DNA from: Candidatus Saccharimonadota bacterium
GTDB taxonomy: Bacteria; Patescibacteriota; Microgenomatia; UBA1406; GWC2-37-13
NCBI GenBank assembly: GCA_016432445.1
Contig: CP066689.1
Span: forward strand, 930,001 to 962,000
DNA: 32,000 nt
Direction: 5' to 3'
The notes below the pieces were generated by a model. It ran no database searches. It was not told the DNA's origin and saw nothing but the letters and a program-made list of their open reading frames with translations. Both the position numbers and the translations under genes were made by a program. Positions 4,898 through 30,761 of the stretch are shown here, piece after piece (positions within the stretch are counted from its first letter, which is position 1; every line of letters starts with the position of its first letter).

Positions 4898-4922
4898 TAA
4901 TAACGAACATTAAATATTAACT

Positions 4923-6268: not shown

Positions 6269-6287
6269 TATTGTAAAATATTAAGTT

Positions 6288-6352
6288 GGTTATGGGTTTT
6301 GGGTTGTGGGTTCTGGGTTTTAACTCATCACTCATAACCCATAACTCAGAAC
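6288..6352. repeat. family A palindromic repeat, intergenic copy
   Basis: ggttatgggttttgggttgtgggttctgggtttt-aactcatcactcataacccataactcagaac. It shares its ends (GGTTATGGGTT ... CCCATAACTCAGAAC) with the copy at 10868-10938. Confidence 0.75.
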
Positions 6353-10645: not shown

Positions 10646-11236
10646 TTAGATTTTACTCATGGCAAAGTAGCTAACAATGGCTGCGGAGACTATCACATTT
10701 AAAGACTTATTGATTCCCCACATGGGAATTTCCACAATTTGGTCAACAAGTTCAAGCGTTTCCGGCAAAACTCCAAAAGTTTCATTACCAACAAGAAGCG
10801 CTAAAGGAGTTTGATAATTGGCCGACCTATAATCAATAGCTTTTTCACTTTGCTCCACAGCGATAATGGTTATGGGTTGTGAGTTTTGAGTTTTGAGTTT
10901 TTGTTTTGACCAAGAACCCATAACCCATAACTCAGAACTTCTTAAATCGTTAATTGCCTCTCTTGCTGTAGCTTTATATTCCCAAGATATCATCTTATAG
11001 GTGCCAATGGATGCTTTTTTGATCTTAGGATTTGGTGGAATTTCCGTCTGTCCGCATAAATAAATTTTTTCAATAGCTAAAGCATCAGCTAAACGGAAAA
11101 GACCGCCGACATTATAAGTATCATAAACATTTTCCAAAATAAAATATATTGGATGGCGTTTAATAGTTTTAAGACGCTCTTTTAGTTTTTCATCTTCCTC
11201 TTGAGCTTCCCGAAGTTCCCGAGCGGTCATTTTCAT
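10646..11236 (-). CDS. SpoU/TrmH-family RNA 2'-O-methyltransferase
   Basis: SpoU motifs YNVGGLFRLADA, LLVGNETFGV and IPMWGINKSLNVIVSAAI. The start is set at MKMTAREL (11236) because a TATAAT box lies 6 nt upstream. Confidence 0.85.
   Translation of the reverse strand: MKMTARELREAQEEDEKLKERLKTIKRHPIYFILENVYDTYNVGGLFRLADALAIEKIYLCGQTEIPPNPKIKKASIGTYKMISWEYKATAREAINDLRSSELWVMGSWSKQKLKTQNSQPITIIAVEQSEKAIDYRSANYQTPLALLVGNETFGVLPETLELVDQIVEIPMWGINKSLNVIVSAAIVSYFAMSKI
10868..10938 (-). repeat. family A palindromic repeat inserted in frame in the SpoU methyltransferase gene
   Basis: Sense-strand reading is gttctgagttatgggttatgggttcttggtcaaaacaaaaactcaaaactcaaaactcacaacccataacc, translating as SSELWVMGSWSKQKLKTQNSQPIT. 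Confidence 0.75.
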
Positions 11237-11390: not shown

Positions 11391-11419
11391 TTGACTTCCA
11401 AATAATCTTCAGTTATAAT
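11391..11419 (+). promoter_or_regulatory. consensus sigma70 promoter, near-leaderless
   Basis: TTGACT (11391-11396), 17 nt, TATAAT (11414-11419), then 8 nt to the ATG at 11428. Confidence 0.5.
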
Positions 11420-11427
11420 ACGATCTT

Positions 11428-12242: not shown

Positions 12243-12271
12243 TTGAAAAATCGTATTAATTATGGTATATT
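12243..12271 (+). promoter_or_regulatory. sigma70-like promoter of GC-rich cassette 1
   Basis: TTGAAA (12243-12248), 17 nt, TGg-TATATT (-10 at 12266-12271). An ATG at 12279 would open an 18-codon leaderless mini-ORF (MKNSLNIADQLRLILVGF). Confidence 0.45.
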
Positions 12272-12386
12272 ATAGGATATGAAAAACTCATTAAACATAG
12301 CGGATCAGCTCCGCCTTATTTTAGTGGGTTTTTAAGTGACTTAAAAAGCCTTTATCAACTTGCTTGGTAATAAGCTTCAAAGTCGC

Positions 12387-12410
12387 ACTTTAACAGTTAG
12401 GGTTCAGATT
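12387..12410 (+). repeat. cassette 5' boundary box plus left arm of a 14-bp inverted repeat
   Basis: ACTTTAACAG (12387-12396) followed by TTAGGGTTCAGATT (12397-12410). The exact reverse complement lies at 13698-13711. The same box occurs at 23480-23501, with a variant at 27045-27080. Confidence 0.7.
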
Positions 12411-12432
12411 TTTAGAAATAGGAGGAAAGGAA

Positions 12433-12669
12433 GTGCAAACCGTATCGCTGCCCTTGTGGCAGTTGATGATGTATCTGCTTGGAGGAATGGTATTAGGCAT
12501 TATTCTCTATGTGGTTTTGAAGGATAGAATCATTCAAACCATTGGAAAACTGATGCGAAACCCAAAGCTCACACAGATTATCATCTTTGTAGTTGCAGTA
12601 ATCTGGTTCGCCGCCATGATTTACTCGTGGTGGATAACAGACACCTGGCCTTGGCCAATCAGGATGTAG
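12433..12669 (+). CDS. small two-TM membrane protein (GC-rich cassette 1)
   Basis: GGAGGAAAGGAA precedes the GTG start. Two hydrophobic helices (LMMYLLGGMVLGIILYVVL; IIIFVVAVIWFAAMIYSWWI) and a Trp-rich tail. No family recognised. Confidence 0.55.
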   Translation: MQTVSLPLWQLMMYLLGGMVLGIILYVVLKDRIIQTIGKLMRNPKLTQIIIFVVAVIWFAAMIYSWWITDTWPWPIRM

Positions 12670-12706
12670 GAGGAGATATCATGATCTTAACAAAAGCAAG
12701 CTTTTT

Positions 12707-12724
12707 TGACTCTAGCTAGAGTCA
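12707..12724. promoter_or_regulatory. perfect 18-bp palindrome between the two cassette-1 cistrons
   Basis: TGACTCTAG|CTAGAGTCA. Confidence 0.4.
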
Positions 12725-12783
12725 GGGAAGCTAAGCGAATAGCCGACAAGAAATCAACGATCGATCACGAAAGGAGTTCTAAA

Positions 12784-13686
12784 ATGGGTAAAGCAATTAA
12801 CCTTGCCCTACGCGTAATAGGTGCTGCAGTTGTCTTGTTTATCGCGGTCGCCCTCATCTGGGGGCCGTTAAACGACAACCTGCGGCCTACCAAAAGCTCG
12901 GCAGACGGGACAACTCCCGTTCCGACCGTAGCCTCTGTTTCGCCTACTGCTACACCGACTGCCACCAACACGCCCACGCCTGCAGCTTCCGCAACCGCTG
13001 TTCCGCCTACTACAACCCCTGCGCCCAAAGTCGCTGTACCCTGTCCGACAGACGAGGAAATGCGGCGAGCGCTTGAATTCGACCGGCTCGGCATCAAACC
13101 CGTGTTCACTGGCGAGGGAATCGTCTGGGATCCCTGTAAGTGGAATTGGCAAAGCAACGATCTTAATGCCGTTCCGATTACCCTCCCTGACGGTTGGCAA
13201 GCAACTACAACTCGCGGCAGTGATGGAGCAGTCCAGGTATGGAAAGGCCCGGCGCCAAAGATGGATGTCCGCGGCTTCACCCTCCGTTTCTTACGGCCCT
13301 ACGACAGACAGGAGTCTCGGTGGGCCCTCGACAATTGCGAACTCCTCACAAGGGAGAACGCTTTTGGCGAACGGCGTAACCCATCCTATCCAACCACTAA
13401 CGGCAATGTTTCTTGTGCTTCCAACCCACCCAAAAACTCTGGTTCCGGAAGCATCTCCAAATCCTGGCTTCGCGACAATGTCGGAGGCCGCGAGGACAAG
13501 TGGACCGAGCCTGACTGGTCTGGTGGCGCCTGGGTCTACAAGGACAAGGGAACCTTTGTCCCTATGAAATACCCTGGCTCCGGGGAGTTGACCGTTTGGA
13601 TCAGTGGTGGTCCAGTGATTATAACTTCAGCCAATGCCAGCCGACTCAATGGCCAAAGTTTCGACGAGGCTTCATTCAAGCCGTAG
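12784..13686 (+). CDS. TM-anchored protein with a Pro/Thr/Ala linker and a Cys/Trp-containing C-terminal domain (GC-rich cassette 1)
   Basis: AAGGAG lies 7 nt before the ATG at 12784, which I prefer to the track's TTG at 12706. MGKAINLALRVIGAAVVLFIAVALIW is the TM anchor. TPVPTVASVSPTATPTATNTPTPAASATAVPPTTTPAP is the linker. A ~200-aa domain of unknown family follows. Confidence 0.65.
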   Translation: MGKAINLALRVIGAAVVLFIAVALIWGPLNDNLRPTKSSADGTTPVPTVASVSPTATPTATNTPTPAASATAVPPTTTPAPKVAVPCPTDEEMRRALEFDRLGIKPVFTGEGIVWDPCKWNWQSNDLNAVPITLPDGWQATTTRGSDGAVQVWKGPAPKMDVRGFTLRFLRPYDRQESRWALDNCELLTRENAFGERRNPSYPTTNGNVSCASNPPKNSGSGSISKSWLRDNVGGREDKWTEPDWSGGAWVYKDKGTFVPMKYPGSGELTVWISGGPVIITSANASRLNGQSFDEASFKP

Positions 13687-13697
13687 CCGAACCGGCC

Positions 13698-13810
13698 AAT
13701 CTGAACCCTAATCTATCTGGGGAAGTGGAGTTGATCTCTTTCGCGATGCTTACGCATCGCAATCGCTTTACCGCGATTTAGAGTATCTTCTCCCCCTTCC
13801 CCCAGTTTTT
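13698..13810 (+). repeat. cassette 1 3' boundary: right inverted-repeat arm plus nested-hairpin trailer ending in a T-run
   Basis: AATCTGAACCCTAA (13698-13711). CTGGGGAAGTGGAG (13717-13730) pairs imperfectly with CTCCCCCTTCCCCCAG (13790-13805). This encloses GCGATGC-ttac-GCATCGC and AATCGC-tttacc-GCGATT, followed by TTTTT. It contains GCTTTACCGCGA (13765-13776), identical to 27856-27867. Confidence 0.65.
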
Positions 13811-16903: not shown

Positions 16904-19900
16904 AGACCGCAGCCGAAAATTTATATCTCTTATCATTTTGCACGCAGTAATCCTTATTATATTACTCATGAATTTTTCATGGGGAAAATATTTTACAGGT
17001 TGGGATGCCATTAATCCCGAATATAATTTCAGCCTAAATTTTCAGCGGTCTTTGTCAGCTTTTTGGCAGGAAAACTATGGATTAGGAACCATAGGCGGGC
17101 ACGGATTCGCGGCTCTTTTACCTCACACCGCAGTTACCTATTTGTTTTCTGTTATTTTTCCTCAGTGGGCAATTAGGACCATTTTTACTTTTTTTAGCTT
17201 TTACCTTGGCAGTGTAGGAATGTTTTTTTTAGTTCGATTTATAATTCAAAAATTGAGAGATGATAAAAAACTTAATTATTTTTTGCAGGATATACTAGAA
17301 AAAAATCAAGAATATTTAGCCTTAGCAGCTTCATTATTTTATATTCTTAATCTAGGAACGACTCAAACTTTTTATGTTCAGCTTGAACCTTTCATTGTCC
17401 AGTTTGCAGCTCTTCCTTGGCTTTTCTGGATTATTATCCGACTTCTAGATAACTGGAATAAAAAGAATCTACTATTATTTTTTTTCATTAATTTTTTAGC
17501 TACAATACAAGGATTTATTCCTTCTTTATTTGTCGCCTATGCTACAGCTTTAAGCATATTTATTATAATGACGGCTTTTTTTCATCGAAAATCGCCAATT
17601 TATTTAAAAAATATTTCCCTTATTGCGATCTTAACTCTGATTATAAACTTATACTGGATTATTCCTTTGGGCCATTATGTTTTAACTCAAAATCAGTCGT
17701 TTTTAAGCGCTTACAATAATCTTCAATCTACTCCTAATTTTGTTGAGGTTAGTAAAAAATATGGAAATTTACCTAATGTCGCCTTGCTCAAAAGCTATTT
17801 GTTTGATTCAGTTCAGTTTAATATACCAGTTCTTAAACCTTGGATTAATCATCTGAATAATCCTTTAACTGTTTTTATTGGCTATATATTTTTTTTGATT
17901 GTAGTAGGCGGAGCTGTTTTTTCATTTTACTTTTTTAGACAATATCTCCCCAAAATCTTGGCCATTATTTTTATTTTCTTTTTTGGCAATATAGCTATTT
18001 CAACTCCGCCGTTTTCTTTTGTAATAAACATCTTGCAAAGTCTCTCCCCCACCTTTGAGCAGGCTTTCCGCAATACTTTTACTAAATTTAGTATTGGTCT
18101 TGCTTTTGAATACAGCATATTTTTTAGTTTTGGACTGATTTTTTTACTTTTCTTTAAAAAGAAATATCTAAGATTTAACTGGAATAATAAGTATTTTTTT
18201 ACTATAATTATTTGTAGCCTTATTTTTTATTCGTTTCCAGTCTTCACCGGCAACTTAATTTATAAGAATCTTCTTCTAAAAATACCTCAAGCTTATTTTG
18301 ATATTTTTGATTATTTTAAAACTCAAACAGATGGAAGAATTGCTGATTTTCCTCAAGATTGCCCTGAAGGATGGTACAGCTATAGTTGGGGTTACATCGG
18401 TTCAGGATTTCAATGGTATGGCGTAAAACAACCTTTTGCTTCCCGCACTTTTGATGTCTGGAGCAATAATAATGAAAATTATTTTTGGCAAATAAATCAA
18501 GCTATCAGCGAGAAAAACTATGCACTCGTGGACTCCGTCTTTAATAAGTACAATATTCGTTGGATTTATTATGATCCCAATATAAAACACTGTCGGGATC
18601 AAAAAGCGTTTCTTCAGTATGATAATTTTATTCAATATTTATCCTTATCTAATAAGTACACCTTAGTAAAAACCTTTCCTTCTGATAATATTGCGTCCAT
18701 AAAGCTTTTTGAAAACAAATATTTTTCAGATAATAGTTCTTATGCAGGAGCGATTAACAACTTAGCGAACATTGGTCCTTTTTACAAATGGAATGATGAC
18801 GATCGGGCTTTTTTTGAGCGGGATGATTATATGACTACAGAAAATAAGGATTATGATATCTATTACCCTTTCCGTTCTCTATTTACCAAAAGAAGTTCTG
18901 AAGAAAAAGAATATAGCCTTAAGACTTTGAATAACTGGATTATATTCAGCAATACTATTCCCAAAAACGTTCAAAATTATATTTTTAAAACTAAAAATTA
19001 CAATGATATAGAGAAAAAACTGCCATTTTTCTTAAAGTTAACAAAAGTTGATAACACCACTTATGAAATTTTCCTTTCTTACATTTTTCCCCAGCTGTTT
19101 ATTGATGGAAAAAAATTATTAAATTACCAACCATCTTATAAGTTGGGAACTTTCAGAACTGATGAGTTTAAAGTAATGATTAATAATCTTGAAGCAGAGG
19201 GTGATGATGGACTATATAAAGATTATTTTACTCTTAATACATCCAATAAAATAGAAATTATTAACAGCTCTTCTGCACCAATTTTTTCTTGGGATAGCGA
19301 ATCAGATATTTTGTATAAAAACATCATCAGCAAAAATTTTACTCTTAATATCCCCTCTTTTGAAAATGGTTATCTTGAAGTGATAACTCCTAAAATCAGT
19401 GATAAAAAGTTAAATGGTTATGAGGTTTACTCTGAGCTTGACAGTAATCTACCTCAACCTTGCGAAAAGAATACTCTAAATAAAAATCTTTCCTATGAAA
19501 TCGGAAAAGAGCAAGGAATCAATTTCGTCCGGCTTATATCAAAAAAATTCAATCAATGCTTGATATATAATCTCGATCAAGTTTCAGCGGCAAACAGTTA
19601 TTTACTGGAGATAATCTCAAGAAATATAAGCGGTGCTAATCCGCTTTTTTACATTTTTAATCGTAAAGGAGAACGTTACCTTGACTTAAATATTAACAAC
19701 AACTCCTTATTCAAAAATCACTCTTATATTATTCCGGCAGTGGCAGAAGGCGAGTTGGGTTATTACTTGCACTTTGTTAATAAAGCCGGTATCAAACAAC
19801 AAACCATAAATGACTTTGGAGGCTTTGGATTATGGCAAATACCCTATGAATTTATTAAAACAATTAAGTTTCAAAATAAAGTTACAAATAATTTAACAAT

Positions 19901-20294
19901 TAATAATGACATTATAAATCTAGATGTCTCCCACCCTAATTCAACAGTTTACTCTTTTAATATCCCTGAAACAGAGATTAATTACATTGTGTTATTTCAA
20001 GGCTTTCATCCTTCATGGAAAGCTTATGTGTTACCACTGTCTCAACTCACTTTTTTAGATAGTTTCCTGCCTTTTATAAAAGGAGCAGAATTAAAAAACC
20101 ATGTTTTAATAAACAACTGGGCTAATGGCTGGAAATTAGATTCTCCCTCAAATATAAACAGTCAAACATCGGTTGTTGTGATTTTCTGGCCGCAATATCT
20201 TGAATTTATCGGTTTTGGAATTTTAATTGTCAGCTTCGCTGTTATTTTGATTCGTTCAAAATCTAAAACCTTGCCTGACGGCAGGCAGGTCTAA
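16890..20294 (+). CDS. very large membrane protein with a GT-C-like (DUF3367/AftD/YfhO-like) architecture
   Basis: About 470 aa of polytopic N-terminus (WDAINPEYNF...WQENYGLGTIGGHGFAALLPH), about 650 aa of soluble region, and a single C-terminal TM segment. The ATG at 16890 follows GGAAGGA and overlaps the preceding ORF. Confidence 0.7.
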   Translation: MSIFKDRSRKFISLIILHAVILIILLMNFSWGKYFTGWDAINPEYNFSLNFQRSLSAFWQENYGLGTIGGHGFAALLPHTAVTYLFSVIFPQWAIRTIFTFFSFYLGSVGMFFLVRFIIQKLRDDKKLNYFLQDILEKNQEYLALAASLFYILNLGTTQTFYVQLEPFIVQFAALPWLFWIIIRLLDNWNKKNLLLFFFINFLATIQGFIPSLFVAYATALSIFIIMTAFFHRKSPIYLKNISLIAILTLIINLYWIIPLGHYVLTQNQSFLSAYNNLQSTPNFVEVSKKYGNLPNVALLKSYLFDSVQFNIPVLKPWINHLNNPLTVFIGYIFFLIVVGGAVFSFYFFRQYLPKILAIIFIFFFGNIAISTPPFSFVINILQSLSPTFEQAFRNTFTKFSIGLAFEYSIFFSFGLIFLLFFKKKYLRFNWNNKYFFTIIICSLIFYSFPVFTGNLIYKNLLLKIPQAYFDIFDYFKTQTDGRIADFPQDCPEGWYSYSWGYIGSGFQWYGVKQPFASRTFDVWSNNNENYFWQINQAISEKNYALVDSVFNKYNIRWIYYDPNIKHCRDQKAFLQYDNFIQYLSLSNKYTLVKTFPSDNIASIKLFENKYFSDNSSYAGAINNLANIGPFYKWNDDDRAFFERDDYMTTENKDYDIYYPFRSLFTKRSSEEKEYSLKTLNNWIIFSNTIPKNVQNYIFKTKNYNDIEKKLPFFLKLTKVDNTTYEIFLSYIFPQLFIDGKKLLNYQPSYKLGTFRTDEFKVMINNLEAEGDDGLYKDYFTLNTSNKIEIINSSSAPIFSWDSESDILYKNIISKNFTLNIPSFENGYLEVITPKISDKKLNGYEVYSELDSNLPQPCEKNTLNKNLSYEIGKEQGINFVRLISKKFNQCLIYNLDQVSAANSYLLEIISRNISGANPLFYIFNRKGERYLDLNINNNSLFKNHSYIIPAVAEGELGYYLHFVNKAGIKQQTINDFGGFGLWQIPYEFIKTIKFQNKVTNNLTINNDIINLDVSHPNSTVYSFNIPETEINYIVLFQGFHPSWKAYVLPLSQLTFLDSFLPFIKGAELKNHVLINNWANGWKLDSPSNINSQTSVVVIFWPQYLEFIGFGILIVSFAVILIRSKSKTLPDGRQV

Positions 20295-20324
20295 GATCGA
20301 TTATCAAAGATCTAATGTGCTACG

Positions 20325-20347: not shown

Positions 20348-22513
20348 ATGAAAACTCTCTCTCATCTCCAAGTTAGGAACCCTAAAGATGATGAAACGCC
20401 AATTGAGGCTTCAACTCAGATCTTCTCATCTCTAGTCCCCTATCCTTTTATACCTTTATGGAGGAGACTTCTTTTTTCGCCGCGGACTTATGCTTTTGAA
20501 ATTTTTCTTTTAGGCCAGACTGTTTATTTTTATATCTCTGCTCCCTCGGAAAACGAAACCTTAATCCAAAGTCTCGTTACTTCATCTTTTCCTCAATCGG
20601 TTCTTCAGAAAACCACTGACCCTATGGATATTGTTTTAAAATCCAAACATATTATGGCTGGAGAGGCTTGTCTTAACGCCGCTTTTTATTATCCGATTAA
20701 AACTTATATGGATTTTACGGATGTTGATCCAATGGCTGCACTTTTAGGTTTTTTAGCAAAACAACCTGCCAATATCAAAATGGCTGTCCAGATACTGATA
20801 ACCCCAGCTTCATTCCCGTGGCAAAGTCAAGCTGTAGCCGCAGCAGCACTACAGTCTTTAGATGAAGCCTCGGAAAAATATGTCCGTAATCCTCATCAGC
20901 TTTTGATTATGAGAAAAGCTTCATTTCAAGGAGGTAGAACTGCTATCCGCTTAGTTGTCGGTTCAGACACTGATAACACACCGCTTCTTCCTTATCTACA
21001 AAACCTGGCCGGAACTTTTGGCACTTTTTCTTTGGGTGAAGGCAATCAGTTTGTTTTTAAGCGACCTTTATTTACGAAACAGCGTTTCCTTTCCCGGGTT
21101 AAAAAAAGAAAGATAAATTATTTTGAACGGCAAAACCAGATCTTAAATGCTCAGGAAATCGCCAGTATTTGGCATCCTCCAGGGTTTCTACTGGCCGGAA
21201 TTAAAAATGTGGCCTGGGGTAAGACTCTGGCTGGAGAGCCGCCTGAAAATCTGCCTGTTTCTGAAGGTATTACCGATCAGGAAAAACAAGGCGTCAACTT
21301 TTTTGCTAAAACCGAGTTTAAAAACAAGGAAACTATTTTTGGTATTAAAGATGCCGACCGGCGCAAGCATGTTTACATTATTGGAAAAACCGGAGCTGGA
21401 AAATCTACCCTCATTGCCAACATGGCTATAGACGATATCAGAAAAGACAGGGGCATTGGTATTATCGATCCCCACGGCGATTTGTCAGAAACTATTCTTG
21501 ATTTTATTCCCAAAAGACGCCTTAATGATGTTATTTACCTTGAACCTTTTGATACAGAAAGACCTTTTTCTTTAAATGTCTTGGAAATTAAAAACAAACA
21601 GCATAAAGATTTAGTTGCTTCAGGCATTGTTTCCATTTTCAATAAGCTTTATAAAGAAAGCTGGGGACCTCGTCTGGAGTATATTCTAAGGAATGTTATT
21701 TTAACCCTGCTTGAAATACCCAATGCAACTCTCATTGATGTTTTATCGCTTCTAGCCCAAGAGGATTACCGCAGAAAAGTAGTCCGTGAGATTCAAGATC
21801 CAGTCATTAAAAATTTCTGGGAAAAAGAGTTTGCTAAGATGCCAGACCGTCTGAAAGCTGAAGCCATTTCCCCTATTCAAAATAAGGTCGGACAGTTTGT
21901 TTCCTCCAAAATGATCAGGAATATTATTGGTAAACCAAAATCTTCAATTGATCTTGAAGCCGCCATGAATGAAGGGAAAATACTGATCTTAAATCTCTCC
22001 CAGGGAAAACTTGGAGAAGATAATGCGGCTTTGCTTGGCGCCATGATGATCACTCAGATCCAGCTTGCGGCCATGAACCGTTCTTTTGTCAAAGAGGAAG
22101 ATAGAAAAGATTTTTTCCTTTATGTTGATGAGTTTCAAAATTTTGCCACCTCATCTTTTGTAAAGATCTTATCTGAAGCAAGAAAATATCGGTTATCTTT
22201 AGCTTTGGCTAACCAGTACATTGAACAGCTTGAAGAAGAAATTCAAAACGCAATATTTGGCAATGTCGGTACACTTATGTCATTTGTTGTGGGTGCCCGC
22301 GACTCGGAAATATTATCTAAAGAGTATGGCGAAATTTACACTGAAAGTGATTTAGTCTCCCTTGGAAAACATGAGATTGTTTTGAAGCTTTCTATCGATA
22401 ATATGACCTCTGCTCCATTCCCGGCCAAGACCCTTCCTCTTCCTGCCTTAAAAAATGAAAATAGAGAAAAAATAATCAAGTTATCGAAAGAAAAATATGG
22501 AAGGAAGGTATAA
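20348..22513 (+). CDS. TraD/VirD4/TraG-like (type IV coupling-protein-like) P-loop ATPase with a ~340-aa N-terminal domain of unknown function
   Basis: Walker A IIGKTGAGKST, Walker B FFLYVDEFQNF, and LALANQY. There is no N-terminal TM helix and no other T4SS gene in the window. Confidence 0.75.
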   Translation: MKTLSHLQVRNPKDDETPIEASTQIFSSLVPYPFIPLWRRLLFSPRTYAFEIFLLGQTVYFYISAPSENETLIQSLVTSSFPQSVLQKTTDPMDIVLKSKHIMAGEACLNAAFYYPIKTYMDFTDVDPMAALLGFLAKQPANIKMAVQILITPASFPWQSQAVAAAALQSLDEASEKYVRNPHQLLIMRKASFQGGRTAIRLVVGSDTDNTPLLPYLQNLAGTFGTFSLGEGNQFVFKRPLFTKQRFLSRVKKRKINYFERQNQILNAQEIASIWHPPGFLLAGIKNVAWGKTLAGEPPENLPVSEGITDQEKQGVNFFAKTEFKNKETIFGIKDADRRKHVYIIGKTGAGKSTLIANMAIDDIRKDRGIGIIDPHGDLSETILDFIPKRRLNDVIYLEPFDTERPFSLNVLEIKNKQHKDLVASGIVSIFNKLYKESWGPRLEYILRNVILTLLEIPNATLIDVLSLLAQEDYRRKVVREIQDPVIKNFWEKEFAKMPDRLKAEAISPIQNKVGQFVSSKMIRNIIGKPKSSIDLEAAMNEGKILILNLSQGKLGEDNAALLGAMMITQIQLAAMNRSFVKEEDRKDFFLYVDEFQNFATSSFVKILSEARKYRLSLALANQYIEQLEEEIQNAIFGNVGTLMSFVVGARDSEILSKEYGEIYTESDLVSLGKHEIVLKLSIDNMTSAPFPAKTLPLPALKNENREKIIKLSKEKYGRKV

Positions 22514-23256: not shown

Positions 23257-23315
23257 GTCAAAATCCAAAATCCAAATAATAAAAAATCATTTGACATTTG
23301 AAATTTGGATTTTAT
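23257..23315. repeat. family C palindromic repeat, second copy
   Basis: gtcaaaatccaaaatccaaataataaaaaatcatttgacatttgaaatttggattttatgg. Confidence 0.65.
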
Positions 23316-23368
23316 GGAGCGTTTCGTTCAACTCTCTTGTACAGATAAAGAAAATCTTCTATAGGTTA

Positions 23369-23377
23369 TGCTATAAT
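23369..23377 (+). promoter_or_regulatory. extended -10 promoter (TGcTATAAT) of GC-rich cassette 2
   Basis: TG at 23369-23370 and TATAAT at 23372-23377. No good -35 box seen. Confidence 0.35.
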
Positions 23378-23479
23378 AATAGCAATATTCAAATATGGGT
23401 TGGTACAACGCCATATTTTTACCTTGAAAGTCTTTACGTCTTTTCAGCGTAAGATAGGAAATATTGGACTTTTAAGGGA

Positions 23480-23501
23480 ACTTTAACAGACAGGGTTCAG
23501 A
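23480..23501 (+). repeat. cassette 5' boundary box plus left arm of a 10-bp inverted repeat
   Basis: ACTTTAACAG (23480-23489), AC, then AGGGTTCAGA (23492-23501). The exact reverse complement lies at 24113-24122. Confidence 0.65.
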
Positions 23502-23608
23502 AAAAAAGAAAATGAAAAGAGGGTAAAAAAAACAAAAGAAAAATAGAATAAAGTATAGTGGAAAAATACAGTCTCAACTGTATCTCTCATGTCAGAAAGG
23601 AAAGGAAA

Positions 23609-24109
23609 ATGAAAATTCTATCCGCGATCCTAGTTTCCGTAATTCTGCTGGTAGGATGCGAGTCATCCGCTCCAACGTATTCCGGCGGGTACGTTAGCCA
23701 GCAACCACCAAGTCAGTCTCAATCCCAGGCAGCGCCGTCAAATCCAGTATCCGCAGTGATGCTGACTAGCGACAACCTTGACCAGTACATTGGGGGGGCG
23801 CCGTGGGGATACGCGCCATCGCAGTCGGCAAACTGCAATCGGCAAATTGTGGGCTACGATCCAGTAGCTCAGATCACCTTTTCCAAAGGTACTGCCCTGA
23901 TACCAGATTTACAGGGCTTACCCGCAACTTACAAGGTCTTTGACAAATCGCGGTTTTTAGTAACCATCGCCTCAGCAACGCAGTGGGTTTTCGAGTACGT
24001 GAGTATGAAAAAAATCGTGCTTGATCAACCAGCGCGGCCCAACCTTGTCGCCGGACCAGGACCAACCCCCACTCCTTACCCCAAACCAATCTGTGTCTAC
24101 ACCAGGTAG
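23609..24109 (+). CDS. lipoprotein of unknown function (GC-rich cassette 2)
   Basis: AAAGGAAAGGAAA precedes the ATG at 23609. MKILSAILVSVILLVGC is a signal peptide with lipobox L-V-G-C. The mature N-terminus is Gln/Ser/Pro-rich, and the tail is PGPTPTPYPKPIC. Confidence 0.65.
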   Translation: MKILSAILVSVILLVGCESSAPTYSGGYVSQQPPSQSQSQAAPSNPVSAVMLTSDNLDQYIGGAPWGYAPSQSANCNRQIVGYDPVAQITFSKGTALIPDLQGLPATYKVFDKSRFLVTIASATQWVFEYVSMKKIVLDQPARPNLVAGPGPTPTPYPKPICVYTR

Positions 24110-24110
24110 G

Positions 24111-24200
24111 AATCTGAACCCTTATCTCAACGAGGGGCTTTGTTGTTTTAAAACAACCCGCAACCCGCGGTCAAAAAAACAACTTAGCCCCTCCCCACCC
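24111..24200 (+). repeat. cassette 2 3' boundary: right inverted-repeat arm plus hairpin trailer
   Basis: AATCTGAACCCTTATCT (24111-24127). GAGGGGCT (24132-24139) pairs with AGCCCCTC (24186-24193), enclosing the perfect palindrome GTTGTTTTAAAACAAC (24142-24157). Confidence 0.6.
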
Positions 24201-24201
24201 T

Positions 24202-25056
24202 CAACATTCAACCTCTGGAGTTGAAAGTATTGTTGTAACGGTCTAGATCTTAATTTTTACCACTTCTTCGCATGCTTAATGAATTCTAAAGTTTTTTGAT
24301 AGTCTGCGTTCATAAGTACAAATCTTTCATATCGATCTTTGTCTTTCTGAAAAAGGTCAAGGATAAATTCATCATTACTCAACCTTTTTTTATTGTTAGA
24401 TAAATATTCTTTAAAAGAAGATAAATGATAATTTTCTAAATCCTTAATATTTTCGATTACGCTTGATGAATAAGGATTAAGATGAATATAACGGGAGACG
24501 TGTTTTAGTTGTTCGTCATTTAATATCCTCACTGATTTAAATTTAGGCAAAAAAATCGGACCTCTTCTTTTATTCTTAATATTGTAATACCTCGTAAATG
24601 AATTGAGAACGTCGGAAATAAATCGAGGGATACCTTCATCCGTTTTTTGCCTTAACAAAAAATGGAAGTGTGTAGGCATTAAGCAAAAAGCCATGATTTC
24701 TACTTTAAAATATTTTTTAAATGAAACCTCATTCATGAGATTTTCAACTATTTTTTTATCAGTTATTTTTAATTTAGAAAAACTTATTGCTGCCTTTAAG
24801 GAACGGTAGTAAGCAAGAAGTTGCATAAAAATATTTGTATTGCTGTCTCTAATTTTAAATATTACTCTGTGATCAATTGTCCTGTTAAAAACGTGATAGA
24901 TTGAATTGTTTAGAAAAGGTTCAAGTCGTTGAGGCATGAGAAAAATTTACCTCAATCATAACCTTAGTTACAACGGATTATCGTCAACAAAAGTGAGGAA
25001 AAAATCATATCTAGACTGTCTTGACAACCTTTTCAACTCCAGGGGTTGACATATTG
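24202..25056 (-). mobile_element. IS200-like / RAYT-type element: a Y1 HUH transposase gene flanked by ~47-bp inverted REP-like repeats
   Basis: The left repeat (24202-24248) and the reverse complement of the right repeat (25009-25056) share TCAACC, CTGGAGTTGAAA, TTGT and a terminal GTCTAGAT. Each holds a TCAAC/GTTGA hairpin. Confidence 0.75.
24257..24937 (-). CDS. IS200-like HUH-Y1 transposase (REP-associated tyrosine transposase type)
   Basis: HUH motif in CLMPTHFHFLLRQ and the catalytic-Tyr helix in VSRYIHLNP. At 226 aa it has a C-terminal extension, typical of RAYT-like rather than minimal IS200 TnpA. Confidence 0.85.
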   Translation of the reverse strand: MPQRLEPFLNNSIYHVFNRTIDHRVIFKIRDSNTNIFMQLLAYYRSLKAAISFSKLKITDKKIVENLMNEVSFKKYFKVEIMAFCLMPTHFHFLLRQKTDEGIPRFISDVLNSFTRYYNIKNKRRGPIFLPKFKSVRILNDEQLKHVSRYIHLNPYSSSVIENIKDLENYHLSSFKEYLSNNKKRLSNDEFILDLFQKDKDRYERFVLMNADYQKTLEFIKHAKKW

Positions 25057-25423: not shown

Positions 25424-25498
25424 AAAGTGATTATATAATTTTTTCTGTTAAGTCAACAAAAAAATGGTATAATATAAATTCTTCAATTTTTAAACCTT

Positions 25499-25729
25499 AT
25501 GGAAAAAAGACCAACTATACCTTTGTGTGATTTATATATCGCCCGCCCGGATATAATCAAACAAGAGGATGGACCACTAAAGGGCAAAGATTTTTGCCAA
25601 ATTCAAGCTGTCCGTCAAGGCGAGAAAAAATGTTTTCACGCCCAAAGAAGAGGTTCAGGAGGAATGACACCACCAAATTGCCATAGAGTTTTAAGATCAA
25701 GAAGAATACCGGCACCTTGGAATAAGTAA
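25499..25729 (+). CDS. doubtful small basic Cys-containing ORF (76 aa)
   Basis: An extended -10 (TGgTATAAT) lies about 30 nt upstream. No SD and no family recognised. Composition is atypical (more GC than its flanks). It could be non-coding. Confidence 0.25.
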   Translation: MEKRPTIPLCDLYIARPDIIKQEDGPLKGKDFCQIQAVRQGEKKCFHAQRRGSGGMTPPNCHRVLRSRRIPAPWNK

Positions 25730-25742
25730 ACTTAAATGTGAA

Positions 25743-25786
25743 ATAGACTGCTACACCAACTCTTTCAACTCCGAGGTTGATTTTAT
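25743..25786 (+). repeat. third REP-like copy (solo), same orientation as the right repeat of the RAYT element
   Basis: ATAGACTGCTACACCAACTCTTTCAACTCCGAGGTTGATTTTATG compared with CTAGACTGTCTTGACAACCTTTTCAACTCCAGGGGTTGACATATTG (25011-25056). Confidence 0.6.
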
Positions 25787-25795
25787 GTTATGTAA

Positions 25796-26899
25796 TTATT
25801 TACGAGATACTACGTTGGCCACGTGAAAACCGTTGTTTTCCAGTTCTTGCATAACTTCATCAGTCATCTCTCCATTGCCGATACCTATATCAAACCTAAC
25901 TGAACCATTAAGATCATCAATGTGCGACCAAATGGCATTCATATTAATTCCAGCTCCTGCAAGGATCCCTGTCATTCTATTTAATGACCCAACATTATTA
26001 TCTGCAGTTGTAATAGTAACCGAATGAACCTTTAGATTAGCCAAGTGTTCAAGAATAGAAATCGTATCTATATTCATAGCTAATCTTATTTCTCCAGTCG
26101 GATCAAGCTTTTCAACTGTCCGGTCAAAAGTTTTTTCCAGTTTTCCCGGTGGTAAATGACTTTCTCTTATTATCCTTTTCATGGCTCTTCCTAATTCTTT
26201 TACAATTTGTCTACTGTTTGGATTATCACCAAGATTCCTTATAATGGATGCAGAAATTACAGATGATTGTATTAGTGTTCGCCACAATGCTAAGTTGAAC
26301 ATACGCGAATTTGCGGTAGACATTGCTATTAAAAGTTCCATATTGACACCTATCTCAGCAAGTGCAAGCCCTATAGTGCGATTAATCAAATGAGGCTTAA
26401 ATTGAGTAAAATCAGCATCAGAATCATGCTCTTCAAAAGGCATGCGAATAATTACCATACCTGCTTTACCACAAACTTCTTCAGCTATTGAAGTTGCCCT
26501 TTGCCAGTTCTTACCATAGGGAAGTACAAGAGCATTTTGACCAGGTGGCGGTTGATCGTCTTTAAAAAGAAAATGAACAGAGGTAATACTATTATTGTCT
26601 CTATCAATCATTTTATAACCAGGAATTAGACTTTTTTTAGTTGTACAGTCATCCATAATATTTTGATCAGGACCAAACACATCAGCTGTAGCTTGAATCA
26701 TTTCTGCAGCAACCTCAACCGGCACTGAAAAAAACACAGTCTCACATTTTCGAATAGCTTCTCGAGGTGCAATCGTTCCTGTATTTTCTTTATCCGAAAT
26801 AACAACAGGATACCCTGCAGTCTCAAACATTCTTCTTGTAACTTGGCCCATCTTCCCCAATCCTCCGATTATGGCGACAGAGCGATCTCTTTCTGACAT
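25796..26899 (-). CDS. tyrA: prephenate/arogenate dehydrogenase with a C-terminal ACT-like domain
   Basis: Rossmann motif VAIIGGLGKMGQ, a PDH-like core (FFSVPVEV ... MPFEEHDSDADFTQFKPHL), and a C-terminal ACT-like segment (SVTITTADNVGSLNRMTGILAGAGINMNAI). Confidence 0.7.
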   Translation of the reverse strand: MSERDRSVAIIGGLGKMGQVTRRMFETAGYPVVISDKENTGTIAPREAIRKCETVFFSVPVEVAAEMIQATADVFGPDQNIMDDCTTKKSLIPGYKMIDRDNNSITSVHFLFKDDQPPPGQNALVLPYGKNWQRATSIAEEVCGKAGMVIIRMPFEEHDSDADFTQFKPHLINRTIGLALAEIGVNMELLIAMSTANSRMFNLALWRTLIQSSVISASIIRNLGDNPNSRQIVKELGRAMKRIIRESHLPPGKLEKTFDRTVEKLDPTGEIRLAMNIDTISILEHLANLKVHSVTITTADNNVGSLNRMTGILAGAGINMNAIWSHIDDLNGSVRFDIGIGNGEMTDEVMQELENNGFHVANVVSRK

Positions 26900-26952
26900 G
26901 TGGACTGGTATTATAACAAAAAAGATGGATTTAATCTACCGCTTAGTAATTG

Positions 26953-26981
26953 TTGTTAAACCTATAGTTATCTGATAGAAT
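26953..26981 (+). promoter_or_regulatory. sigma70-like promoter of GC-rich cassette 3
   Basis: TTGTTA (26953-26958), 17 nt, TAGAAT (26976-26981). Confidence 0.4.
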
Positions 26982-27042
26982 ATTTTACTGGAGATAAACA
27001 TAAGGTAAAAGCTGCCTTAAGGCTATTTCCAGTGATCTATTT

Positions 27043-27135
27043 GCACTTTGATAACTTGCGGCCCCGCTTAGCGGGGTTCAACGAGTGAGATTAATGTCGG
27101 ACAAATCTTTTGCCCTACCCTAGTCTCACTTGTTG
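27043..27135 (+). repeat. cassette 3 5' boundary: variant box with two local hairpins
   Basis: GCACTTTGATAAC (27043-27055). Hairpin CCCCGC-tta-GCGGGG (27062-27076) runs into GGGGTTCA. CAACGAGTGAGA (27079-27090) pairs with TCTCACTTGTTG (27124-27135); its single G-T position is only tolerated as G-U in a plus-strand RNA. Confidence 0.55.
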
Positions 27136-27165
27136 AGATAATAATGACGAAAGGAGGTAAATAAA

Positions 27166-27363
27166 ATGTGGAAGTGTACGAAGTGCGGACAAGAAGTCGA
27201 GGACCAAGGAAAACATCAGGTTAGGTTGGTTTGGTGTACTCGGTGTCACGATTATCATCAAGCCGACAAAATCGGCCCCAGTCACGCGTGCTACAGAGCA
27301 ATCTCTTGGGAAGAACACGGCGAAGACAAACTCTGCGAATCAGGCTCGTTCATCCACGTCTAA
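27166..27363 (+). CDS. small Zn-ribbon-like protein (GC-rich cassette 3)
   Basis: GAAAGGAGG lies 8 nt before the ATG. MWKCTKCGQ...WCTRCHDYH gives a CxxC...CxxC pattern. Confidence 0.5.
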   Translation: MWKCTKCGQEVEDQGKHQVRLVWCTRCHDYHQADKIGPSHACYRAISWEEHGEDKLCESGSFIHV

Positions 27364-27406
27364 GTAAGCTCGGCAAAGACAGATTAAACATAGAGGAAAA
27401 GAGGGG

Positions 27407-27778
27407 ATGTCTAAACCAACGATCAGTTTCAAACTATCTTGCCCCGACGGCTGCATAGTCATTCCTACAGGAACATCTTTAACTAAGGAGGAACAATGGG
27501 CTCTGGCTATTCTATACACCGCGGCAGCGCGAGCAAAAGAAGGCGGTTTGATTCCAATTGGACTCAGCCAGTTTTTGACACTGTCAAGTGAACCAGGAAC
27601 TCCGTGGACCAAAGTTCCCAACTGCCAAGAAAAAATAGCCGAAGCGATTTTCGGACTAGGCCAAAAACGCCTACTTAAGATTGTCGAAGGCGCCAAGGAT
27701 CTTTACATCGTTCCGCTCAGGACATTAGCCCATTTACTGAAAAAATGTACACTACAACCTCAACCAATTAACGTGTAA
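27407..27778 (+). CDS. hypothetical protein (GC-rich cassette 3)
   Basis: 123-aa ORF co-oriented with the Zn-ribbon ORF, with a GAGGA/GAGGGG purine run upstream. No family recognised. Confidence 0.45.
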   Translation: MSKPTISFKLSCPDGCIVIPTGTSLTKEEQWALAILYTAAARAKEGGLIPIGLSQFLTLSSEPGTPWTKVPNCQEKIAEAIFGLGQKRLLKIVEGAKDLYIVPLRTLAHLLKKCTLQPQPINV

Positions 27779-27855
27779 GGAAAGGAGTTGACCGCAAGAT
27801 CAAAGATAGGACACTGAAAAGTAAACTGAAGAAATATAGAAGCTACCAAGCCGTA

Positions 27856-27890
27856 GCTTTACCGCGACAACGTCGTCGCTTTCTTCTTTT
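27856..27890 (+). terminator. cassette 3 3' box plus intrinsic-terminator-like hairpin
   Basis: GCTTTACCGCGA (27856-27867) is identical to 13765-13776. It overlaps GCGAC-aacgtc-GTCGC, which is followed by TTTCTTCTTTT. Confidence 0.5.
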
Positions 27891-27923
27891 CACCCACTCA
27901 TTGTCCTATTTTTTTGGCCAAAA

Positions 27924-28724
27924 TTACCTGGGCACTTTTATAAGGGATTCTATAAATTGCTGAGTGCTTTTTGCTATTTCTTTTCTGTTAGATCGATTGA
28001 TGGCGTCAATTATCGCGCTCCCCACAATCACAATATCGACCTGCCTCTTAAGCAAATCAACATGCTCTTTTTTGGAAATTCCAAAACCAACCGCAACCGG
28101 GATCTTAAAGACTTCTTTTACTTTTTTAAGAAAAGCAACGACATTGGGATCAATCTTTTTTTGCGCTCCGGTTGTCCCCTGCCTTGCCATACAATAAACA
28201 AATCCTTTAGCTCCTTTTGCATTTTTTTTCAATCGCCCAATTGTGGAAACCGGCGAGATGACTCTTATGGCATATAAGTTATTTTTTTTACAAGCTGCAA
28301 AAAAATGCTCGCCGTGCTCTTCATCAATGGGCATATCAGGAATTATCAATCCCGAAACTCCGGCTTTTTTGGCATCTGTACAAAATCTTTTAACACCATA
28401 TTTAAAAACATTGTTGTAATAGGCCATAAAAAGTAAGGGTACCTCAACTTTTTTTTTAAGTTGAGCCGCTACCCGGAAAGCGTCTCTTACTCTAACCCCC
28501 TTCCTTAAGGCCTTCTCACAAGCTTTCATAATTGTCGGGCCATCGGCTAATGGATCAGAAAATGGAATCTGCAGTTCGATAAAGTCGGCACCGGCCCTCT
28601 CCATTGTCTCAACTAAACTAACGGTCTCAAATAAAGAAGGATAACCCACTACCACATGAGTCATTAAACCAATTCTTTTTTCCTTTTGTATTTTTCTTAG
28701 TCTTATATCAATACTGTTCATCAT
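27924..28724 (-). CDS. trpA: tryptophan synthase alpha chain
   Basis: ELQIPFSDPLADGPTI signature and GFGIS phosphate-binding loop. 266 aa. Confidence 0.95.
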   Translation of the reverse strand: MMNSIDIRLRKIQKEKRIGLMTHVVVGYPSLFETVSLVETMERAGADFIELQIPFSDPLADGPTIMKACEKALRKGVRVRDAFRVAAQLKKKVEVPLLFMAYYNNVFKYGVKRFCTDAKKAGVSGLIIPDMPIDEEHGEHFFAACKKNNLYAIRVISPVSTIGRLKKNAKGAKGFVYCMARQGTTGAQKKIDPNVVAFLKKVKEVFKIPVAVGFGISKKEHVDLLKRQVDIVIVGSAIIDAINRSNRKEIAKSTQQFIESLIKVPR

Positions 28725-30380: not shown

Positions 30381-30458
30381 TTAGTTACGCCAGCTGACAC
30401 CCTCCTTTAAAGAAGTTTGCCAATTGCGCCAATTTAATAAGTAAAAATAAATTTTCAT
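30381..30458 (-). CDS. candidate trp leader peptide (25 aa, 3 Trp codons)
   Basis: My minus-strand translation: ATG AAA ATT TAT TTT TAC TTA TTA AAT TGG CGC AAT TGG CAA ACT TCT TTA AAG GAG GGT GTC AGC TGG CGT AAC TAA = MKIYFYLLNWRNWQTSLKEGVSWRN. The ATG overlaps the yerC-like stop (ATGA). The ORF covers the segment that can pair with the 5' arm of the terminator. Confidence 0.5.
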   Translation of the reverse strand: MKIYFYLLNWRNWQTSLKEGVSWRN

Positions 30459-30718
30459 ATATTTTTAAATCTACCTTTTTTAATCTCGTTTGAACCTCTG
30501 GTTACAGTAGCTACACCTACTCCCAGTTTCTCGGCTATCTCATGCTGGGGAACGCCTTTTTTAAGCATTTTCACAATCTTCAATCTCCTGGAAAACTCTA
30601 TTAATTCTTTAGGAGTAAACAATCCATGAAAAAAATCAATCATCTCTCTTTCTGATTTAATCTTAAGAAAAATATCGATTAAATCTTTAAGTTTTCTATC
30701 AGAAACTTCATTAAACAT
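30455..30718 (-). CDS. YerC/YecD-type TrpR-like DNA-binding protein
   Basis: 87 aa. FFHGLFTPKELIEFSRRLKIVKMLKKGVPQHEIAEKLGVGVATVTRGS is the TrpR/YerC helix-turn-helix signature. Confidence 0.85.
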   Translation of the reverse strand: MFNEVSDRKLKDLIDIFLKIKSEREMIDFFHGLFTPKELIEFSRRLKIVKMLKKGVPQHEIAEKLGVGVATVTRGSNEIKKGRFKNI

Positions 30719-30761
30719 GATACTAGTATACTAGTAATGTAGTACATTTGTCAAATGTAAA

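Follow-up and report, generated by a model that had tools for sequence, protein, structure and literature searches.

What is a short, comparatively GC-rich unit on the plus strand doing between trpA and a tyrA-like gene, both of which are read from the minus strand in a row of aromatic amino acid genes? The locus belongs to a Candidatus Saccharimonadota bacterium (GenBank assembly GCA_016432445.1, contig CP066689.1) and lies in a stretch of 32,000 nucleotides (positions 930,001 to 962,000 of the forward strand) that we refer to as the window; all coordinates below are counted within it unless another contig is named. The unit, which we call cassette 3, spans 26953-27890 and consists of a promoter-like site, a leader, two open reading frames (ORF65 and ORF123), and a terminator-like hairpin. 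An initial annotation had described a two-ORF, GC-richer plus-strand unit bearing Shine-Dalgarno sequences, and we located all of these features in the sequence. On the balance of the evidence, we lean toward the interpretation that cassette 3 is an acquired regulatory-protein operon that would carry a donor-type promoter and a structured cis-regulatory leader.

The first line of evidence is that cassette 3 does not look like the genes around it. The window has a GC content of approximately 35% and contains three plus-strand GC islands, at ~12250-13800 (56%), ~23340-24200 (51%), and 26950-27900 (44 to 47%), which correspond to cassettes 1, 2, and 3, respectively. The GC fraction of cassette 3 (0.44 to 0.47) exceeds that of the host genes (0.29 to 0.40), and at third codon positions ORF65 reaches 0.56, ORF123 0.40, and the ORFs of cassettes 1 and 2 approximately 0.55 to 0.57, compared with 0.14 to 0.35 for host genes. 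Expression signals differ in the same way: a Shine-Dalgarno core precedes 5/5 cassette ORFs but only 4/24 host genes (Fisher p = 0.001). At 8 of 19 host transcription-unit starts, a -10-like hexamer ends 4 to 16 nt before the start codon, as compared with 9.8% of random positions; TATAAT-like hexamers close to a start codon can be seen, for example, at 26900-26930, 11398-11427, and 25424-25453. Because these hexamers lie so close to the start codons, the pattern suggests widespread leaderless or near-leaderless mRNAs in this Daviesbacteria-like host; our literature search on leaderless mRNAs and Shine-Dalgarno sequences in Patescibacteria returned no reports. The cassette leaders, on the other hand, are 150 to 230 nt long (approximately 180 nt in cassette 3). 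Given this contrast of Shine-Dalgarno cores and long leaders with the host genes, cassette 3 carries a foreign composition and donor-type expression signals. Its junctions are not an assembly artefact, since all 13 contigs that carry cassette 3, from at least seven independent sequencing runs, are 100% identical, junctions included.

We then asked what the unit might encode. A word-based search of 5.8 billion proteins returned no homolog of either ORF123 (27407-27778, with GAGG/GAGGGG upstream) or ORF65, whereas an exhaustive HMMER scan of 1.84 billion representatives recovered a 126-amino-acid homolog of ORF123, P0124, at a library-wide E value of 1e-4. The two proteins align end to end, with 31% identity over 108 amino acids. 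A second candidate, P0123 (4007 amino acids), was rejected: it consists of 20 identical repeats of ~200 amino acids that each match weakly and that inflated its HMMER E value to 2e-20, and it is probably an assembly or concatenation artefact. No further homologs were found by protein pattern in metagenomes and viral contigs. Structure prediction, which the initial annotation had proposed for both proteins, was informative for ORF123. With P0124 in the alignment, AlphaFold2 produced a model with a predicted local distance difference test score (pLDDT) of 73.6 and a predicted template modeling score of 0.67, whose core comprises three helices and a beta-hairpin (H53-60, H66-69, H73-86, E90-94, and E99-103). 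The top Foldseek matches are winged-helix domains throughout; in the PDB they are the MarR-family proteins MepR and BpsR, AF1382, the globular domain of histone H1, ORC2, ScpA, and SSV1 F-93, and in BFVD they are phage helix-turn-helix (HTH) proteins. A PDB profile search gave nothing relevant. Codon statistics are best in the ORF123 frame. The end-to-end homolog, the winged-helix model, and the codon statistics together show ORF123 to be a real gene with a predicted winged-helix fold. The protein belongs to a very rare family, and its most likely role is that of a DNA-binding regulator.

The evidence for ORF65 (27166-27363) is of another kind. It has the best Shine-Dalgarno sequence in cassette 3, an AGGAGG at 27152-27157 located 8 nt before its ATG, and two CxxC knuckles (C4-x2-C7 and C24-x2-C27) at the spacing of approximately 15 to 20 residues expected of a zinc ribbon, which makes it a candidate zinc-ribbon protein. 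Its single-sequence structural model has a pLDDT of 54 and contains beta strands only, with weak PDB matches to a PHD finger and to bL31 (E = 0.015 to 0.4). Pfam gave no match to ORF65, its codon statistics do not single it out as coding, and the ORF123 homolog on the other contig has no ORF65-like partner. Of the zinc-ribbon and unknown ORF pair originally proposed, ORF123 is thus upheld by its homolog and model, but ORF65, for which we found no homolog, is an unproven candidate.

The gene for P0124 also allowed us to ask whether the leader of cassette 3 is conserved. It lies on L013, an unrelated 5.9-kb metagenome contig from JGI (Joint Genome Institute) with approximately 50% GC, and the region upstream of it shares two words with the cassette 3 leader, in the same order. 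The first, box A (CCTATAGTTA, with the core CTATAGTT), is at 26961-26970 in cassette 3, and the second, the 12-mer box B (TTGCACTTTGAT), is at 27041-27052. The shared 12-mer and 10-mer together were obtained in 0/5000 randomisations, and the L013 leader has the same layout as that of cassette 3 (z = -4.1). A good promoter, TTGACA-17-TATACT, directly adjoins box A on L013, where two further promoters have variants of this box (CCTATAAC) upstream of them. Boxes A and B are therefore conserved, in sequence, between units whose proteins are only 31% identical. When we scanned for the box A-box B pair more widely, we obtained 8 viral matches and 48 metagenome matches; nearly all are duplicates of coding sequence, and the metagenome matches are about as many as expected by chance, with 2 to 5 credible. 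One of them, on L054, from an unrelated metagenomic genome, is an exception: its box A abuts TTGACT-17-TAGTAT, its box B is followed by TTGCGG as in cassette 3, and its leader is laid out as in cassette 3 (z = -5.65). The leader on L054 heads a GC-richer gene for an orphan membrane protein of 150 amino acids with two transmembrane segments, and this gene sits between ftsW and murG, which are direct neighbors in the usual arrangement of the dcw cluster. As read from the minus strand of L054 (12530-13440), the unit has a promoter, a 230-nt structured leader with boxes A and B, the orphan gene, and a strong terminator. A covariance model built from the cassette 3, L013, and L054 leaders recovers its training sequences only, a 20-mer specific to cassette 3 has 0 viral matches, and extended versions of the boxes match viral contigs in coding sequence only. 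Because the boxes have been kept beside a diverged protein, and because variants of them recur at unrelated orphan islands and at L013 promoters, we infer that they are functional cis elements, most likely serving as operator or leader sites.

In cassette 3, box A overlaps the spacer of the promoter-like site, which was read as the pattern TTGTTA-17-TAGAAT at 26953-26981 with a TG before the -10 hexamer. Promoter-like sites around cassette 3 are as frequent as expected from shuffling (8 versus 8.1); this one is a plausible candidate promoter, in a neighborhood where the count is no higher than in shuffled sequence. At the other end, a terminator-like hairpin, GCGAC-AACGTC-GTCGC (27864-27879), is followed by TTTCTTCTTT, so that the element as a whole spans 27864-27889. 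The proposal that the unit has its own promoter and terminator thus stands insofar as both sequence patterns are present, and is weakened by promoter-like hits that occur at shuffle expectation. A second hairpin, AAGCTAC-CAAGCC-GTAGCTT (27840-27859), is terminator-like for trpA on the minus strand. Between and across the two hairpins, at 27856-27867, is a 12-mer (GCTTTACCGCGA) that also occurs in the 3' region of cassette 1 (13765-13776; p = 0.006).

The leader that follows the promoter-like site is predicted to be highly structured. The plus-strand RNA from 26988 to 27170 folds at -65.2 kcal/mol (z = -6.24), with 0/200 shuffles as good, whereas the minus strand gives z = -3.66. We used seven constructs for ensemble folding. 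For the 5' hairpin SL1 (26988-27032), the expected number of base pairs is approximately 15 in all constructs beginning at 26980-26988; the GC hairpin CCCCGC-TTA-GCGGGG (27062-27076) forms 6/6 pairs in every construct; and the long hairpin (27077-27137) forms about 15 of 16 expected pairs in all of them. The core of the long hairpin is a stem of 12 pairs between CAACGAGTGAGA (27079-27090) and TCTCACTTGTTG (27124-27135), which RNAfold extends to approximately 16 pairs, and box C (GGGTTCA, 27074-27080) overlaps its base. The sole non-Watson-Crick position in the 12-bp stem, G27083-T27131, reads G-U in plus-strand RNA but C-A in minus-strand RNA; this feature, pointed out at the outset, can be read directly from the pairing. 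Folding thus shows the leader to be thermodynamically stable, with three hairpins that are predicted robustly. It is unlikely to be a transcription attenuator, as its hairpins lack a U-run after them.

The role of box B within this structure is less clear-cut. Box B is predicted to be paired (P = 0.62 to 0.86), and its partner varies between constructs. Pairing with the Shine-Dalgarno region is confined to RNA ending at 27170; when at least 14 nt of ORF65 are included, box B pairs instead with CGAAGUGCGGA, which covers codons 6 to 9. In cassette 1, folding pairs the corresponding GCACUUU with AAGUGC on the GUG start codon. A general statement that box B would pair with the translation initiation region is defensible on these models. 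At the gathering threshold, Rfam 15 finds only tRNA-Thr in the window and only tRNAs on L013 and L054. A known RNA family for cassette 3 was also sought at E <= 5 and rejected, as this yielded only two sub-threshold matches at chance level.

How does cassette 3 relate to the two other islands in the window? A 22-nt box (p = 0.001) is common to cassettes 1 and 2, whose ORFs are also enclosed by inverted copies, and we took as the mark of their family ACTTTAACAGnnAGGGTTCAGA at the 5' end together with an inverted copy, AATCTGAACCCT, after the stop codon. Cassette 3, in contrast, has just ACTTTGATAA and GGGTTCA, 22 nt apart, and no 3' inverted copy. At the level of short motifs, there is more in common: CTATAGTT heads cassette 1 (12237), CTATAGGTT heads cassette 2 (23359), and the collinear pattern CTATAG(G)TT .. 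G[A/C]ACTTT[G/A]A[T/C]A .. GGGTTCA occurs three times in the window, always on the plus strand and once at the head of each island. This pattern of boxes A, B, and C appeared in 0/1000 dinucleotide shuffles, although it was defined after the data had been seen. All five copies of GGGTTCA in the window are at cassette edges, and in cassettes 1 and 2 this motif supplies the 5' arm of the ORF-bracketing inverted repeat. From these comparisons we conclude that the three islands are probably linked by short functional boxes and not by a shared overall leader. The suggestion that cassette 3 opens with a variant of a family box accordingly holds for three short motifs but is not borne out by whole-leader alignment or by a covariance model.

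Several additional features of these islands were observed. In cassette 1 (12386-12410 / 13698-13711) and cassette 2 (23479-23501 / 24111-24122), a perfect inverted repeat of 10 to 14 nt, (TT)AGGGTTCAGA(TT) ... AATCTGAACCCT(AA), brackets the coding region; its 5' copy follows the ACTTTAACAG box and precedes the Shine-Dalgarno sequence, and its 3' copy comes just past the stop codon. This repeat could form a long-range 5'-3' RNA stem or serve as a recombination site. We considered whether the cassette 3 hairpin could be an "empty" joint of such repeats, on the basis of a similarity of TCAACGAG / GTTGAGATAA to the 3' end of cassette 2, and rejected this idea; judged after multiple testing, the similarity is at chance level, and the two matches are not independent. 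Likewise rejected was GGAGTTGA, common to the three 3' regions, as a partial repetitive extragenic palindromic (REP) element, because the similarity stops at 8 to 9 nt. Just beyond the right end of the window, on the minus strand of L070 (4098-5010), is a fourth GC-richer orphan gene on the opposite strand, of up to 249 amino acids. An extended -10 promoter (TGTGGTATAAT) precedes it, and its leader, approximately 230 nt long, has box-B-like words and holds GCACTTTTAAAA and AACACTTTGTAG without the exact box set.

The position of cassette 3 is best understood from the flanking genes and their relatives. To its left on the minus strand is the tyrA-like gene (25796-26899), a prephenate dehydrogenase with an ACT domain, assigned by a weak Pfam match with which NCBIfam agrees below its cutoffs; to its right, also on the minus strand, is trpA (27924-28724), which Pfam confirms along with trpB and a TrpR/YerC-like gene in the window. 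Other genes in the window encode DnaB, a copper ATPase, SpoU, and a TraG/VirD4-like ATPase (20348-22513). For the tyrA-like gene, a separate TATAAT (26910-26915) precedes the start codon by 11 nt. Transcription of cassette 3 into both neighbors had been envisaged as convergent, which holds for trpA; the tyrA-like gene is divergent, with its own TATAAT upstream. The nearest relatives of TrpA are from Candidatus Daviesbacteria and other Patescibacteria (61 to 67% identity), and the longest contig with ORF123 measures 1.10 Mb, which points to a small-genome CPR (candidate phyla radiation) bacterium that lacks close relatives among sequenced genomes. In the Daviesbacteria relative L009, trpA and tyrA are approximately 6.7 kb apart, and seven aro genes plus one for chorismate mutase lie between them: trpEGDCFBA is followed by genes for DAHP (3-deoxy-D-arabino-heptulosonate 7-phosphate) synthase, DHQ (3-dehydroquinate) synthase, EPSP (5-enolpyruvylshikimate 3-phosphate) synthase/shikimate kinase, shikimate dehydrogenase, dehydroquinase, chorismate synthase, and chorismate mutase, and then by tyrA. 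The arrangement in L012 resembles this one. The window organism has at this locus only trpB, trpA, and the tyrA-like gene, with cassette 3 where its relatives carry the aro row. Since the gap between trpA and tyrA in relatives is filled by ~6.7 kb of aro genes, cassette 3 therefore appears to sit at a deletion or replacement scar of lost aro genes and not at a formerly tight trpA-tyrA junction. The unit was originally described as inserted into the aromatic amino acid row; a foreign-looking unit is indeed inside the row, but simple insertion is not what the relatives indicate. Decayed aro genes were sought within cassette 3 by tblastn with 15 aro and neighboring proteins from relatives, and the matches were at chance level (best E = 0.04). 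In L011, a relative with a reduced trpBA locus, a GNAT gene and two tRNAs follow trpA (8600-10600), and a 574-amino-acid serine-recombinase-like gene adjoining TraG-like genes is found in the same stretch. This segment of L011 has the appearance of an integrated element at the position equivalent to cassette 3. Judging by the tRNAs, serine recombinase, and TraG-like genes of L011, the neighborhood downstream of trpA is evidently prone to rearrangement.

Together, these observations are consistent with the following model. Cassette 3 would have been acquired horizontally, would have kept the expression signals of its donor, and would now occupy the scar left by aro gene loss in a reduced genome of the candidate phyla radiation (CPR). 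Transcription would start on the plus strand at its sigma-70-type promoter, yield a transcript consisting of the ~180-nt leader, the possible zinc-ribbon ORF65, and ORF123, and end at an intrinsic terminator that lies back to back with that of trpA. Pairing between box B and the initiation region might tune translation or mRNA stability, and the boxes might be the operator or leader sites of a small regulon run by the ORF123-type protein itself. A regulon under the control of such a protein is, in our view, the most economical model. The inferred parts of this account are that the promoter is used, that the leader controls translation, that ORF123 binds DNA and at which target, and that ORF65 encodes a protein.

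Several results weigh against this interpretation and temper it. The promoter, transcript, and protein of cassette 3 are predicted from sequence alone, and the analysis pointed to no donor lineage or transfer mechanism. The fold matches of ORF123 are weak (E ~1e-2, TM-score ~0.45), and neither ORF123 nor P0124 matches a Pfam, NCBIfam, or PHROG model. The gene finder called ORF65 on 1/13 contigs only, and its status as a gene, which depends on a Shine-Dalgarno sequence and a Cys pattern, is unproven. The unit on L054 is a probable member of the group, having been found through the boxes themselves. The alignment of the cassette 3 leader is not significant with that of cassette 1 (p = 0.67) or cassette 2 (p = 0.18), and a covariance model from cassette 3-type leaders does not detect either, such that any homology of cassette 3 to these leaders rests on short motifs defined post hoc. 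Sequestration of the Shine-Dalgarno sequence by box B is not a robust prediction, because it is lost in longer constructs, where the Shine-Dalgarno sequence has a probability of pairing of 0.15. Finally, RNAalifold finds a common structure for the cassette 3, L013, and L054 leaders with an unfavorable covariation term (+2.56), and the 100% identity of the 13/13 contigs provides no sequence variation for an analysis of covariation or dN/dS. The initial annotation had argued for an RNA-level structure from the single G-U pair and had looked to covariation across further leader copies for confirmation. The strong fold, stronger on the plus strand, speaks for such a structure, but a single G-U pair is weak evidence and the covariation that was looked for came out unfavorable across the three leaders. 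The predicted leader structure is thus supported thermodynamically and by its architecture, not by covariation.

Other explanations must be weighed against an acquired regulatory operon. The broadest is that cassette 3 is one copy of a mobile family in which promoter, box A, hairpin, box B, hairpin, Shine-Dalgarno sequence, variable orphan ORFs, and terminator make up a "leader cassette," moved in trans by a recombinase or by the neighboring REP-associated tyrosine transposase (RAYT)-type Y1 enzyme between housekeeping genes and between organisms. We consider this unlikely, even though there is a good deal to recommend it: three units with collinear boxes and unrelated ORFs lie within 15 kb; the ORFs of cassettes 1 and 2 are bracketed by inverted repeats of 10 to 14 nt (AGGGTTCAGA / TCTGAACCCT); a cassette 3-type leader is present on the ~50% GC contig L013 and a similar one heads the GC-richer orphan gene between ftsW and murG on L054; a RAYT-like gene with flanking inverted repeats of 51 nt is 2 kb away; and the L070 unit is a fourth opposite-strand orphan with a long leader. 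The edges of cassette 3, however, show none of the expected marks, as a repeat scan of 26800-28000 detected there neither terminal inverted repeats nor a target-site duplication nor a copy of a REP element, and the REP-like inverted repeats of the RAYT gene are missing from them. There is no empty site for comparison. The 22-nt box of cassettes 1 and 2 has 0 viral matches and 1 chance-level match in 185,579 genomes, the box-pair matches in metagenomes are about as numerous as expected by chance with 2 to 5 credible, no further boxed unit occurs in ~18 kb of flanking genome beyond the window, and the covariance model does not unite cassettes 1 and 2 with cassette 3. It is with equal tentativeness that we raise the idea of an undescribed class of leader cassettes, comprising the three window islands and the L013 and L054 units, with interchangeable orphan ORFs on a shared platform. 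That platform could combine box A as a promoter element with a 5' hairpin and with box B paired to the initiation region, and would further include a clamp hairpin together with a strong Shine-Dalgarno sequence. If such a class exists, its insertion sites would be gaps between the housekeeping genes of streamlined genomes of the CPR type (trpA|tyrA in the window, ftsW|murG on L054), and its members would move between organisms of differing GC content and would bring a foreign style of leader-dependent translation into leaderless, Shine-Dalgarno-poor hosts.

We are more doubtful still that cassette 3 is the decayed regulatory module of an integrated prophage or integrative and conjugative element, with ORF123 as a Cro-, Xis-, or Rep-type winged helix and ORF65 as its zinc-finger partner, whose insertion downstream of trpA removed the aro genes. 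The tRNAs, 574-amino-acid serine recombinase, and TraG-like genes downstream of trpA in L011, the TraG/VirD4-like gene at 20348-22513 in the window, and the phage HTH proteins among the BFVD fold matches would all fit such a history. Beside cassette 3, though, we found neither an integrase nor an att site nor any other gene of a phage or plasmid, and a phage or plasmid origin was rejected when tblastn and blastn against 50,697 phage and 72,556 plasmid records gave no match; there is also no meaningful PHROG match, and the shared leader boxes on unrelated islands would be left unexplained. A two-gene toxin-antitoxin or defence module, pairing a zinc-ribbon protein with an antitoxin-like winged-helix protein, seems very improbable to us. 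The compact bicistronic layout, the small predicted DNA-binding protein, a promoter of its own with autoregulation possible, the orphan status, and the island-like composition are what one might expect of such a module. Neither protein, however, matches PADLOC (E <= 0.1), Pfam, or NCBIfam, the pair is not conserved in that the L013 homolog lacks an ORF65-like partner, and a toxin-like fold is not apparent. In an AT-rich genome, a GC-rich island often marks a structured non-coding RNA, and the island-like GC content of cassette 3, the very low folding energy of its leader, and the unsupported state of ORF65 could be taken to mean that its ORFs are spurious. We give this explanation hardly any weight, because the end-to-end homolog and confident compact fold of ORF123 largely refute it for that gene, strong structure is confined to the leader, and Rfam matches are absent even at E <= 5.

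The acquired operon can also be compared with known systems. Patescibacteria are reported to carry hundreds of genomic islands, with horizontal gene transfer accounting for up to 13% of genome length (PMC12455944). Like such islets, cassette 3 departs from host composition, interrupts a conserved gene row, encodes orphan proteins, and has traces of mobile elements nearby (the RAYT-like and TraG-like genes); unlike them, it is only ~1 kb long without a mobility gene, has a complete foreign expression set in a largely leaderless, Shine-Dalgarno-poor host, and has leader boxes in common with other islets. ORF123 resembles the small winged-helix proteins of the MarR type, of phages, and of archaeal viruses (SSV1 F-93) in its size, its three predicted helices and beta-hairpin wing, and the conserved boxes upstream of it, which are possible operators. 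It differs from these proteins in that it has no sequence profile match, has an extra N-terminal beta-hairpin and helix, and shows no evident MarR-type dimerisation helices; its fold matches are weak, and its DNA binding is predicted only. With translational-control leaders such as RNA thermometers, riboswitch platforms, and protein-binding leaders, the cassette 3 leader shares a long 5' untranslated region, stable hairpins, and a conserved segment predicted to pair with the initiation region, but it lacks an Rfam family, a ligand or aptamer, and covariation support, and the pairing partner depends on the construct. The islands recall integron cassettes in having unrelated ORFs with a shared short recombination-like motif and, in cassettes 1 and 2, an ORF bracketed by an imperfect inverted repeat. 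They depart from integron cassettes in that every unit brings a promoter-like site and a terminator of its own and the units lie scattered rather than in an array, and we found no intI/attI, no integrase in the window, and no attC-type structure at the 3' end of cassette 3. Unlike insertion sequences, miniature inverted-repeat transposable elements, and REP elements, cassette 3 is not flanked by repeats in the scanned interval.

Elsewhere in the window, we observed additional repeats and genes. A palindromic repeat of ~70 to 85 nt (GGGTTnTGGGTT...AACCCATAACTCAGAAC) occurs at 2565-2646, 6287-6352, and 10865-10938 and folds at -25 to -35 kcal/mol. Two copies are in frame inside copA (residues 453 to 480) and spoU (residues 117 to 141), in the same orientation relative to the gene and encoding a similar peptide, WVMGS..KTQNSQ.IT; they resemble, by analogy, the Rickettsia palindromic elements, here in a CPR genome. 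The RAYT-like gene (IS200-like Y1) occupies 24257-24937 between inverted repeats of 51 nt (24208-24258 / 24999-25049), and a third copy of its repeat type (25744-25772) adjoins the 3' end of the tyrA-like gene. Upstream of the TrpR/YerC-like gene (30455-30718, minus strand), a palindrome, ACTAGTATACTAGT (30720-30737), overlaps a -10-like TATACT; its sequence suggests a Trp-repressor-type CTAG operator and autoregulation of this gene. Long palindromes built from AAAATCCAAAT / ATTTGACATTTG...ATTTGGATTTT are found at 1118-1216, upstream of copA and adjoining genes for a CsoR-type repressor and a cupredoxin, and at 23259-23315, just upstream of cassette 2; these may be an operator or a repeat family. 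Intergenic clusters of an AGATCT-containing repeat (AAGATCTAAGATCAAAGATCT) are located at 4922-5017, 18156-18178, and 20293-20315, and such repeats also form part of the hairpin in the leader of the orphan gene on L070 (L070 4830-4870). Lastly, the PNPOx-like and tyrA-like genes, both on the minus strand, have between them a lone plus-strand ORF of 76 amino acids (25499-25729; GC 0.41). This ORF is Cys/Arg-rich, adjoins a REP-like copy, has no family match, and is called by gene finders on all contigs.

What, then, does cassette 3 mean for the organism that carries it? It is a fairly ordinary orphan islet, set apart by short leader boxes that are found again on other islets and in other organisms. 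On the conservative reading, it would be one more acquired orphan islet in a CPR genome, together with a new and very rare winged-helix family. It would also be a clear example of foreign expression signals that persist in a recipient, and how genes with Shine-Dalgarno sequences and long leaders are translated in a leaderless, Shine-Dalgarno-poor host is a question for CPR biology. Should the boxes prove to be a shared platform, be it a regulon or a mobile cassette family, they would define a new cis-regulatory leader motif and would show how novel genes are taken up by ultra-small genomes and brought under control there.

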